64,000 bases of DNA from Podarcis cretensis (lineage: Eukaryota): positions 27,156,001 to 27,220,000 of the forward strand of contig OX638160.1 of assembly GCA_951804945.1 (NCBI GenBank), in the 5' to 3' direction. Shown here in pieces: positions 1,009 to 8,161 of the stretch (the stretch's first letter is position 1; every line of letters begins with the position of its first letter). The notes below the pieces were generated by a model. That model did not search any database. It was not told the origin of the DNA and saw only the letters and a list, made by a program, of their open reading frames with translations. The translations under genes were made by a program, and so were the position numbers.

Positions 1009-1907
1009 TATTTAACAGTTGTGTCTCTAACTTTGGACACTGACATTTATCTGAGAATTTTGCAGGAAACTAGGTTTCTTCAACCACTGGGGAAACTGAC
1101 TAATTTCTCATAAGGCTGTATGGAAAATACTTAAGATGTAGACAAAAGATTAATTGAAGAGAAATTAATGGTTCCATTTTTGGAATCTAAGCAGGAATGC
1201 CCTCCCCTTGAACTTTGGAGGCTGCTGAAATATATCCATGTCAGAAGGCGGAGGGATGCAACGTTTTCAGTCAGATTGTTTTGTCAAATAAATTTTTATT
1301 AGTTTTCCAATATTTTCAGTCAGATTCTTGCCTGTGATAGAGAACAGCCTCTGCATGCATGGCTCTTCCCTCTTTCAAATTTGGAACTGTTTTTAAAATA
1401 TCTTACTGCTAAACAAACAAGCTTTTCCTACCTCCAACCCGCTCATTTTATGATCTCCCTGGCTGTTAAGTTATTTTCTGAAGTGAAAGGTAAAGAGATG
1501 GGCACTTCTTTAAAAGGCTTATTATGTGCTCTAATTTTAGAGTAGAAAATAAATAATAGTGTTAGTTGTAGAGATGCACGGGCACTTAAATGTTGCCTTT
1601 GTTGACAAAATAAATAGGAGCGGAGGCCCATATCTTTACAGTTGTCCTTCGTGAACTTTACACAGTGAAGTAAGCCATTTAAAAACATTTCTAAATGTTT
1701 TTAATGATACGTAAATAAAATTAAATGTGCATTTAAGCTGACGCAAGGCACATGTGGGGTTTGGGGTTTGTTTGTTTTTTTAATTCATTGTTTTTAAAAA
1801 GGCTTCCTGAGGTGGTGTTATTTTACCCTCTTAAGGTGTTCTAATCTGTTCTTTGAAAAGGTTAAAAATACCCCAGAGGCTGTTTCTGAGGTAAAGTGCA
1901 TAGGTGC

Positions 1908-1930
1908 GGGGGGGGGGGGGGGGAGGGGAG
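1908..1930 (+). repeat. Poly-G / G-run tract with G-quadruplex potential
   Basis: G16 followed by AGGGGAG. Confidence 0.85.
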
Positions 1931-1974
1931 TTTACACACAAGTGTTGTCTCCTTTGTAATGGGAAACACCCCTC

Positions 1975-2154
1975 ATGAATTCTCAGGACATGAAGCTCCC
2001 CCTCAGCCCTTCTGTTTCAGAAGAGGTATGTGATTCAAGGGCAGGGGAATCATCCACCATCTTGAGTTCTGTAGCAGAGGGACCAGATGCCATTTTCAGC
2101 GAGGTGTCTGAACCCTCTGTTGGAAAACCTGAGGAATGCAGTAAAGAAATCAGC
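1975..2154 (+). other. Candidate unannotated coding exon (acidic, Ser-rich, 56-60 aa) ending at a phase-0 GTAAGT donor
   Basis: ATG at 1975, or CAG|GAC acceptor giving a start at 1987. Open to AGC|gtaagt at 2154/2155 and phase-compatible with CDK14 exon 5616. No expression evidence. Confidence 0.4.
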
Positions 2155-4879
2155 GTAAGTCTATAATACATAAATAAGACCCAGCCTTTTCCTGGTCATT
2201 TGAAGTAACTGCTGTTCTTTCGTCCTTTAATTCAAATTACAACCACTCATTCAGAAGCCTTGCATATCCTACAAGCATGGATTGAGATATTGGGGGGGGG
2301 GGTAATAATTTTTGCACCCTCTACAGCCACCTTTAAAAAATGAGAGTTGATCAAATCTTGCATGTGTCTCCTTCTGGGTTCTTCATAACAGTATACAGTG
2401 CTTTGTAGAAGGGCTAAGTATATTGGGTGCTGAATAGTGAATTCCACAGGTCCTTAGGCCTGTTTTCCTATTTATATATATGTACCTGTCTGAAAAAGTT
2501 GCATCAGGGATTATTATTATTATTATTATTTGCTGTATTGAATAATGTGAAGATCAAAACAGGGATTGCTTGATAAATAATATATACAAATGGTCAAACA
2601 TATACAAATGGTCATGGGAATTAAGTAGTTAATTAATCAGTTAACAGTTTAAAAAGTTTGAGAAACTTTTGACTAACTGGTTAACATTTTCAGCTGTCAA
2701 CTTTTTGACGTATACTAGCGAAAAATTACAAGCAAAGTATTTGGTTGAAAATTAAAATCTGGCTTTCACAGAATTTTCCTTTCACGGTCGTTTTCTAGCG
2801 CTCTGGAACAACATTGTTATTTTCAAACTCTAATACTTGTTTATGAGAAAGGTAGTGATGTTTGTTTTTATGAGATACCATGAGGTTCCATGAGATTCAA
2901 GCTGGTGTTTCAGGGCAGCCAATAGTAGAGAAAAAAGCAGAACAGGAGTGGGAGCCATTTCTGCTACTAAATTGTTAGCTCCCATAAAATATTTGAGCAA
3001 ATAAAGCAGACTTAATTTTCAAATGTATATAAACCTCTGATTTATGTCAGTGGAATTTCGTGATAAAGATTATTTCAGAATTCTGGACATTTTGGAGTAG
3101 TGCTACGATTCCTGAGATTCGTCATCATTGCAAAGCAAAATACATACATAGTGGTATTTGTTGAAATAAATGTGTGTTTTAAGAAATGTTTGCTAAAATA
3201 CCCCTTTGCATACTATAAAAGTGCTCTTTTTAGAGTTGATCTGCCAGTGAAAATTGATCCTTAAAAAAAATGTACTGTGTCCTTCTGGTACAGGCAGCCT
3301 AGTCCTCAAAAGCATCTCCTGCCCCTAGTGATTCTGTGTCTTAATGGAAAAGAAACCCACTCACTGCATTTGGGGAAAAAATAATGCTGTTGGGCAAATT
3401 CAACATGCTTCATGCATTACTCATGAATCAGCTTAACTTTTAGCTAGTTATTCTCTTTTTAGAACTTTTAGCTAGTTGAAAGTAGCAATTTTTAATTTAC
3501 AGGTTAACTCAAATTAATCTAGGGAGTAACCATTGAGGAACCTTGTTATCTTTGGTTCATATTTAAATCCTGGATTATGAGTACAAGATGAGATGATCAT
3601 GCTGTAACAAACATTTCTGTTATTAAAACTAAAGGGCTAAATGTCATTAGCCACAAATGACATAGTGACTACCAGGCAACCCTGTGCCCTGTTCACAGGG
3701 TTGCCACTGGTTCTCAAATCCAGCATTGAGACTCACAGTGTTCAGTAGCTAATTGGCATGTGGAACAGGACCTTAAAGAAAAATATTGAGTACTTTTCCA
3801 GTATTCTGTAGCTGTTGCTAACAGTCACTGTATTTCTTAGAACTAGTCTAATATGAGTAATTTCAGTGATAGACAAATAATAAATATTTAGTTGAACAAG
3901 CCAGCGTGCTTAGCAATTGGCCAGAGTTATTTGTAAACCAGAATACCTATTTCATATACAGTGCTAATCCAGGATTATTTGAAATGTATCCCAGGACAGA
4001 AAATAATGTAAAATGTACAAAAATGTTATGTTTTTATCTCCTCGAAAGGACATGTAAAGTGAGAGGGATAGTAGGGAGACCCAAAGGCTAATTTTAGATG
4101 CATGGGGTGGTGTATTCATCTAGTCAATTAAGAGGAAAAGACAATCATATCAAAAGTCCAGTGTTTCATGATGTTTTTCTTTGACAACCAGGAGTTGCTA
4201 TATTGGTTAAGATTATGTTTTACTTTAAAAGGGTGAGGCCAAGACGGAGAAGTATGGTTTGAAGATGAAAGCAAGCAAACTAGGAGTTCACCGGCAACCA
4301 ATGCCCAAGCGCCCACAGAAACCTAGATTTGACCCTGGTTTTTATGCCCACATCTTTCTAGCCTGGGAAGCAAAATGTATTATTGCAGTAGAAGAACACA
4401 TTGCAGTCCTTCAAAAGCACTTCAGGAGAGTGCAGAGCAGGGCTGCTAAACCTTAGGAAGGAAATACGGCCTAGGGCAAAGTTGAGTGGCTTGGACCATA
4501 GGTTCCCTTCCCCAACTTGTCAAGAAACATTTGAAATAAATGTTTAGAAATCAATTCATGCTCAAAAACTTGGCTTTGATTCCCCATCCCGTTAATGTAT
4601 CAAAGCTTTTCGCAATGTTCTGGTTGCCTTGAGAACGAAGGACTTCATTGTTATATGCCAAGGACAATGATAAGTTCCATCTAAATATGAGCACTCCAGA
4701 TGATCAATGCTGATTTTAACAGTATCTCTGGAGATATTGGAAAGTGTTAGTTCATACAGTATGAAATTTGGATTTGCTGCCTACTGAGCAAGTTTATAGC
4801 ATTTACATATACATTGCTAAATGGCTTGTGACCCAACTATCCGATGGAGTGCTTGTCCCTGTACCAGCTAACCCAGACA

Positions 4880-5230
4880 TAGAGGTCAGCGGAGTGGGCC
4901 CTAGACAGTGATCTATCAACAGGGATGGGTTTCTGTAGTGGTGCCTGATTGTGGTATTCCCTTCCCCTGGTGGAGTGGTTGGTTTCTTATTTTGTTGGGC
5001 TTCTGGTGCCAGATAAAAACACATCTGTCATCAAGACCTTTGGAGGAGCTGATTAGACTACTCAGGGCCTGGAGTACAGGGATTATTGTGTCTGCTGATG
5101 TGCTTCTGTTTGTTTCCCTTTTTTCACATTTTGGTTTTACTGTTTGAAATGGTTAATTTATTTGTATTTTATAATTGTAAACTGGGACACACCCAGATGA
5201 ACAGTGGTTTAGAAGTTCAATTAATAATAA
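4880..5230 (+). mobile_element. Degenerate L2-type LINE 3' end
   Basis: Resembles the L2 ORF2 terminus (gggtttctgtagtggtgcctgattgtgg...gccagataaaaacacatct), followed by a T-rich UTR and an aataataa tail. Confidence 0.5.
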
Positions 5231-5615
5231 AAAAATTACTTTGGTTATGCTGTCTAGTGAATAAAGCATGCTCAATTGGACATCTTGGTACAGCTGTTCT
5301 TTAATCTCATCTTTACAGAAATTCTGCAACAAATCCAAATTTCATTCTTCTGCATGGGCTAAGTCTTTCTGACAACTCCACTGATATAGGAATACTGTTG
5401 AAATAGGCAGTGACCATCTGGAGCGCTGAGTGATATTTAAATGGATATCGTTAGACATTGCCCTTGGTACCTGACAATGTCAGGCATTATATATCCAAAG
5501 TATAATCTCATTAGTTTTGGTAATAACAGTTGTTCTTCATAGGGTTGGCTCAACACAGTTAATGGTAGTGTGTGAGTGCTGAAAATTTTATCTCTCCGTT
5601 TCTTTTCTTACTTAG

Positions 5616-5710
5616 CCAACAAGTCCCAAGTTTGGAAAAGCAGACTCTTATGAAAAACTGGAAAAACTGGGAGAAGGCTCATATGCCACAGTATATAAAG
5701 GGAAAAGCAA
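5616..5710 (+). CDS. CDK14: CDK14 exon (95 nt): [31 protein letters not shown](K), Gly-rich loop
   Basis: Polypyrimidine tract and cttag|CCA acceptor; AA|gtaagt donor; phase 0 to 2. Missed by the ORF track, which reads another frame. Confidence 0.96.
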
Positions 5711-8081: not shown

Positions 8082-8161
8082 GGTAAATGGAAAGTTGGTG
8101 GCGCTAAAGGTGATTAGACTTCAAGAGGAGGAAGGCACTCCCTTTACAGCCATCAGGGAAG
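8082..8161 (+). CDS. CDK14: CDK14 exon (80 nt): VNGKLVALKVIRLQEEEGTPFTAIRE, catalytic Lys and PFTAIRE helix
   Basis: ctccag|G acceptor; GAAG|gtacac donor; phase 2 to 1. Confidence 0.97.

Follow-up and report, generated by a model that had tools for sequence, protein, structure and literature searches.

The intron between the third and fourth coding exons of a lizard CDK14 gene holds an open frame of 60 codons that ends at a splice donor in phase with the next kinase exon. A first-pass annotation read this frame as a candidate exon missing from CDK14 gene models, either an alternative first exon or a cassette of 39 or 168 nt. The locus therefore raises three questions: whether the exon is real, which kind of exon it is, and whether it is translated. 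The window is the whole 64,000-nt stretch of the Podarcis cretensis assembly that was analyzed (G000:C12:27156001-27220000 in a 1.51-Gb genome), and positions given without a prefix are window positions.

A spliced exon in intron 3 of CDK14

The host gene is CDK14 (PFTAIRE-1). Kinase exons in the window match named CDK14 proteins (98%–100% for the exon searched, with tblastn in agreement) and contain the PFTAIRE motif. Coding exons 1, 2, and 3 were found ~79, ~69, and ~2 kb upstream of the window, and their peptides are identical, by eye, to those of the lacertids Zootoca vivipara (P0122) and Podarcis lilfordi (P0173). The candidate exon sits in intron 3, which is 7,344 nt long and ends at exon 4 (5616). 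Coordinates of the features are collected in Table 1.

Table 1. Features of the candidate exon and the neighboring CDK14 exons, in window positions
Feature	Positions	Strand	Remarks
Upstream part of the exon, likely 5′ UTR	1321..1974	+	Continuous with the open frame in contigs; 12 ATGs, 11 of them ending before 1975
G-run 5′ of ATG 1975	1907..1929	+	~10 nt shorter in organism A
Out-of-frame upstream ORF, 24 codons	1959..2033	+	Overlaps the main frame; strong start context, G at -3 and +4
60-codon open frame	1975..2154	+	Reads in phase into the kinase exons; weak start context at ATG 1975; 14 Ser, 9 Glu, net charge -8
Acceptor-like site, unused in contigs	1980..1986	+	Poor pyrimidine tract; X2 and X3 contigs pass through
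In-frame donor-like site, unused in contigs	2026..2031	+	Top score in the intron (rough matrix); X2, X3, and X4 contigs pass through
Used splice donor GTAAGT	2155..2160	+	Joint 2154>5616 in X2, X3, and X4; no change listed in organism B contigs
Intron of the alternative transcript, GT..AG	2155..5615	+	3,461 nt; joint in contigs
CDK14 coding exon 4	5616..5710	+	Start of kinase domain, glycine-rich loop; phase 0; acceptor partner of the alternative exon
CDK14 coding exon 5	8082..8161	+	Carries the catalytic lysine and the PFTAIRE helix; X3 and X4 contigs join it to exon 4 at the depth listed for 2154>5616

The region is single copy in its own genome (a search with 1900-2250 gave a single DNA match, and the protein search likewise a single match), which makes a retrocopy unlikely and leaves no sign of a transposon origin. 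An exonized transposable element was considered but is not supported, as dispersed copies of the exon were not found in a search that skips very common words and that old decayed elements could escape; within 1020-1900, that search gave other genomic copies only for a 40-nt piece. Two repeats lie nearby. An AT-rich dispersed repeat of 40 nt (1275-1317), with at least seven other copies at 90%–97% identity, sits at the 5′ edge of the transcript contigs described below. A GC-rich high-copy repeat (638-1008), which we take to resemble a Sauria SINE, lies ~310 nt upstream of the transcribed region and has very high depth in every run of one of the run comparisons.

The landmarks given in the first-pass annotation were all recovered, namely the ATG at 1975, the 60 open codons, the donors AGC/GTAAGT (2154/2155) and GAG/GTATGT (2025/2026), the acceptor before 1987, the TAA that lies in frame at 1957, and the exon that begins in phase 0 at 5616. 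Its description of a GC-richer island also holds: the GC content of the open frame is 48%, whereas windows of 180 nt across the intron have a median of 36%, and the value of the open frame is reached by 6 of 312 overlapping intron windows (1.9%) once the exon and the high-copy repeat are left out. The other two frames of 1975-2154 have four stops each. Scored with a rough donor matrix, the donor at 2155 ranks 19th of the 462 GT sites in the intron, and in 28 of 300 shuffled introns an ATG frame of at least 60 codons is followed by a donor of this quality or better. Judged by its sequence, the feature stands only slightly above chance. It is lifted above chance by an independent splice joint, 2154>5616, found in three sequencing runs (X2, X3, and X4).

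Fifteen runs were listed, none of them on record as RNA; eight were compared, and the RNA type assigned to a run is the tool's guess. X2, X3, and X4, none with a tissue on record, are runs of a related lizard (organism A; one species, one study), and the evidence consists of assembled contigs, which cannot show start site, strand, or level. The GT..AG joint 2154>5616, which the first-pass annotation had named as the junction to look for and which is the downstream splice expected of an alternative first exon, is present in contigs of these three of the four organism A runs. In X2, a 565-nt contig spans 1609-2154 and joins 5616 with 30 nt beyond, and a second contig spans 1321-1625. X3 has contigs at 1500-1685 and 1754-2154, the junction contig being 1,489 nt long and starting at 1754. 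X4 has contigs at 1327-1601 and 1652-1913, and its junction contig of 5,589 nt starts at ~1996. Contigs of X3 and X4 continue from the joint through the whole 95-nt exon 4 and carry the 5710>8082 joint at equal depths. The joints indicate that these runs are RNA.

There is a minimal probability that the joint is an assembly artifact, or that the runs are not RNA, and that the open frame arose by chance. The guessed run type and the 28 shuffled introns with a similar frame and donor would fit such a reading, but the base-exact GT..AG joint is identical in three samples and falls at a donor predicted beforehand. It also accompanies the known joint of exons 4 and 5 and has a depth of 0 in the DNA-like run X13, in which 29 of 30 bins are covered, introns included. 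An exon ending at 2154 in intron 3 is real and spliced.

In X2, X3, and X4, nothing outside ~1321-2154 is covered except repeats and a patch at 4923-5151, a pattern that speaks against intron retention in general. The patch consists of short intronic contigs in X3 and X4 at a depth of ~3.4 and adjoins the window with the highest GC content in the intron (4832-5011, 52%); it is perhaps pre-mRNA or a second minor exon. The fourth organism A run, X1, has no contig on the exon, and X14, a small RNA-like run of 15 million letters labeled as the same species as the window, covers the repeat only; both blanks are uninformative. Two runs of a second relative (organism B), X5 and X8, cover 2042-2302 and 2083-2250 and are unspliced across the donor (0 of 2 with the junction), and these contigs may be pre-mRNA or DNA. 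Their cover comprises the 3′ part of the exon and then 100–150 nt of the intron, as a different start, a retained intron, or DNA may produce.

The kind of exon and its use

An alternative first exon within intron 3 is the best-fitting and most likely kind. This option of the first-pass annotation gains from the 2154>5616 joint and from contigs that read through the in-frame TAA at 1957 with no listed splice. The exon is larger than that annotation described, extending ~650 nt upstream of its ATG and including a stronger-context ATG at 1959 and a second in-frame ATG at 1990. Both in-frame ATGs (1975 and 1990) remain open through exons 4 and 5, as is expected of a coding first exon.

The other option, a short in-frame cassette between exons 3 and 4 (1987-2025 or 1987-2154), is very unlikely. 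Its acceptor and both donors are in phase 0, and the donor at 2026 is the best in the intron on the rough matrix. A cassette would use both an acceptor and a donor of its own, but contigs are unbroken over the 2025 donor in all three runs and over the 1987 acceptor in both runs that cover it. The pyrimidine tract of this acceptor (0.60) is the lowest of those compared, against 0.70–0.90 for eight real acceptors, and among the listed joints there was neither 2025>5616 nor any other at 2025 or 1987. For these reasons the cassettes of 39 and 168 nt were rejected as main forms; a rare form would drop out of the contigs, and a cassette could be a minor product.

We also considered a long internal exon of ~830 nt, with an acceptor near 1320, that would be spliced behind exon 3 and whose stops would direct the full-length message to nonsense-mediated decay. 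Such a poison exon is improbable. CAG sites at 1317-1323 have moderate pyrimidine tracts (0.70 and 0.65), and two runs begin at 1321 and 1327, but the contigs that begin there align from their first letter, and X2 has no listed loose upstream end. The 5′ edge of the contigs at ~1321 adjoins the 40-nt dispersed repeat (~1275-1317) and may for that reason be an assembly break. No joint or loose end into 1321-1987 was seen among those listed, from which contigs with conserved exons may have been filtered; a contig reaching into exon 3 could be lost in this way, and the zero depth of exon 3 in X3 and X4 is accordingly no evidence. Contigs of X3 and X4 that run unbroken into exon 4 fit an abundant form better than a decay target.

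The X2 contig breaks off exactly 30 nt inside exon 4, which is what a merging of two upstream paths would produce, and from this we infer that both CDK14 forms occur in X2. The X3 and X4 contigs run on unbroken, and this assembly behavior hints that in these two runs exon 4 is joined mainly to the new exon. Because two contigs cross the exon 4 boundary unbroken, the new exon may be the main CDK14 form in some tissue. A motif scan found no TATA or GC box near the exon. CpG is depleted (observed/expected, 0.23), and the scan returned a single cyclic AMP response element (CRE) half-site, a single CCAAT, and a single MYB-like site, none of which exceeded chance in the tests made.

Translation and predicted product

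The new first exon is probably translated, in our cautious estimate. An ATG frame of at least 60 codons behind the used donor arose in 76 of 5,000 local shuffles of 1755-2154. The frame is kept in organisms A and B, the latter covered from 2042 only. The sole indel seen in it is a 12-nt in-frame deletion in organism B that removes four whole codons (2116-2127), whereas four of the five indels in 1321-1974 are not multiples of three. Substitutions in one contig number 3 of 180 positions in the open frame and 15 of 366 upstream, a difference that is not significant (Fisher P = 0.20). All four codon changes in the relatives are non-synonymous (L8P, S27A, and D38G in A; G36E in B), compared with 78% of possible changes by chance. 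The relatives are close (~2%–4% DNA difference), and numbers this small cannot settle selection, four changes having almost no power to show neutrality.

A less probable reading, but one that deserves weight, is that the first exon is real and serves as a non-coding or poorly translated leader. Upstream ATGs would capture ribosomes, little kinase would be produced, the 60-codon frame would be incidental, and transcription would reflect promoter leakage or a damping of CDK14. The start contexts point this way: ATG 1959 is strong, its frame runs to 2033, past both in-frame ATGs, and ATG 1975 has neither G, although ATG 1990 has G at -3. No change is listed at ATG 1959 in the X2 contig, and 11 further ATGs lie in 1321-1958. 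The uniformly non-synonymous changes, the unspliced organism B contigs, and the failure of protein searches to find a homologous peptide would also suit a leader. Against it stand the rarity of such a frame among the shuffles, a GC rise (48% against 36%) that covers the open frame and not the upstream part, the frame-preserving indel, and the low power of four codon changes.

Protein searches with the 60-residue peptide covered cluster representatives and at most 15 members per cluster, so that an annotated lacertid isoform could escape them. Among longer proteins there were 33 candidates, none at E ≤ 0.01; among proteins of similar length there was no candidate, and an exact look-up did not find the peptide. 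A HMMER search of 1.84 billion representatives gave one match, a Ser/Glu-rich tandem repeat of a fly (E = 8.7e-5), which was rejected as composition bias. A sturgeon CDK15 protein showed no likeness to the peptide. The peptide is in none of 229 fetched proteins. The exon 4 motif is present in 132 of these proteins, of which 124 have the normal junction of exons 3 and 4, two begin at exon 4, and six differ; none of the 132 resembles the lizard peptide upstream of it. Literature searches, including Podarcis with CDK14 and the motif at the end of exon 3, found nothing on this exon within a scope that left out most subscription journals.

The acidic stretch had been described as a module. A function for it is not supported: there is no sign of amino acid constraint, and no homologue was found. 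The peptide has the look of a spacer under loose constraint that is probably disordered; relative to the charge-hydropathy line it lies on the disordered side by a narrow margin (0.457 versus 0.461).

The reading that we favor, somewhat guardedly, is an alternative first exon driven by an internal promoter, yielding a CDK14 of ~401–406 residues with an intact kinase domain and an acidic front end. Transcription would start inside intron 3, no further downstream or upstream than the stretch from ~1321 onward allows and probably from several sites, and the first exon would be spliced in frame to exon 4, a splice observed in the related lizard. Ribosomes would start at ATG 1975 or 1990, either because the message itself has its 5′ end close by or because they scan leakily beyond 1959. 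The predicted product has 60 or 55 new residues followed by 346 residues of lacertid CDK14. Exons 1 to 3 would be lost, with 126 conserved residues of net charge +9 replaced by 55–60 acidic residues of net charge -8. Among the lost residues would be the basic stretch KKLRR and, at the end of exon 3, the serine motif RRHS, which in human CDK14 are presumably nuclear-import and 14-3-3 sites; these roles were not confirmed in the literature searched. Alignment of lacertid CDK14 (P0122) to the structure of CDK16 (PDB 9r2i) begins at the first residue of exon 4, from which the kinase fold is predicted to be fully kept. The alternative junction places a serine before the first proline of exon 4, as does the normal junction. 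Location and partner binding would be expected to change, and the main effect would probably come from the removal of exons 1 to 3, not from the new peptide.

Comparison with other CDK14 and CDK16 forms

Internal start exons are common in kinase genes, and alternative first exons of CDK14 are already known; those with a clear position join exon 3. Table 4 and the associated supplementary material of one mouse survey list Pftk1 as one of the kinases for which a mutually exclusive first exon has good support, and the same source reports a second 5′ cluster 114 kb inside the gene and a single-tag cluster 17 kb further (PMC1431701). Judging from its spacing, the mouse alternative exon as given there would be the exon of P0098 and P0136 that joins exon 3. 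As far as that source describes the mouse form, it resembles the lizard form, together with P0098 and P0136 (mammal and bird) and P0126 and P0128 (bird isoforms X2/X3), in having an internal start exon, a different N-terminus, and an intact kinase domain. In the four named proteins the N-terminus is attached to exon 3, whose 82 conserved residues are retained, whereas the lizard exon is spliced to exon 4, with loss of exon 3. The novelty of the lizard exon is that it removes exon 3 while sparing the whole kinase domain; the principle of an alternative first exon is not new.

Two proteins share the lizard arrangement more closely. In Sinocyclocheilus P0046 and Crotalus adamanteus P0165, 19 and 2 foreign residues, respectively, are joined to exon 4, giving a similarly truncated kinase. 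Both are single predictions, and their N-termini have no sequence likeness to the lizard peptide. The snake protein, with its two residues, may be a prediction artifact or may reflect an internal start gained independently in this intron.

Human CDK14 isoform d (NP_001274066.1) and its 340-aa orthologues are, like the lizard form, short CDK14 proteins with a foreign N-terminus. We rejected isoform d as a parallel internal first exon, as its N-terminus is exon 3 in another frame and exon 4 is skipped. Through this skip it lacks the glycine-rich loop, which the lizard form retains. The frame-shifted exon 3 forms the N-terminus of the 340-aa isoform d proteins (P0138, P0152, P0081, and P0085), and the same shifted frame is open in lizard exon 3 (locus L002 8026-8271). 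Conservation of the shifted frame may only reflect that of the main frame.

The consequences of losing the N-terminus can be approached through CDK16 (PCTAIRE-1). One CDK16 study describes the N-terminal extension as a PCTAIRE feature and reports that binding of cyclin Y and 14-3-3 requires the region just before the kinase domain, which contains arginines and a regulatory serine (PMC13168255). The partners named for CDK14 in another paper are likewise cyclin Y and 14-3-3 (PMC11734941). Since the CDK16 region is needed for this binding and CDK14 has the same partners, altered location and activation of the short form are plausible by analogy. CDK14 exon 3 does not align to the CDK16 extension, and a like role in CDK14 would be an analogy only.

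The N-terminus of PFTAIRE kinases is conserved across vertebrates, and its role is poorly worked out compared with that of CDK16. A natural form that drops exactly exons 1 to 3 and retains the complete kinase domain would be a ready-made test of the N-terminus in cyclin Y and 14-3-3 binding and in location, and the exon is a candidate for the birth of a coding first exon within an intron. A broader scenario is speculative, and we consider it doubtful. In it, a young lacertid first exon, derived from intron sequence, would now be the main CDK14 start in at least one tissue and would strip the conserved basic N-terminus to give a differently located or differently cyclin Y-dependent PFTAIRE kinase, and the older upstream first exon of amniotes would have been recoded by frameshift in the same lineage.

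A counterpart of that amniote exon, matching the N-terminus of P0098 and P0136, was found ~20 kb upstream of exon 3 (locus L004, G000:C12:27133522-27133593). The matching frame has a stop and no ATG. In another frame, an ATG is open for 24 codons, with the same three final residues and a GC-type donor in phase 0. This exon looks either recoded by compensating frameshifts or decaying.
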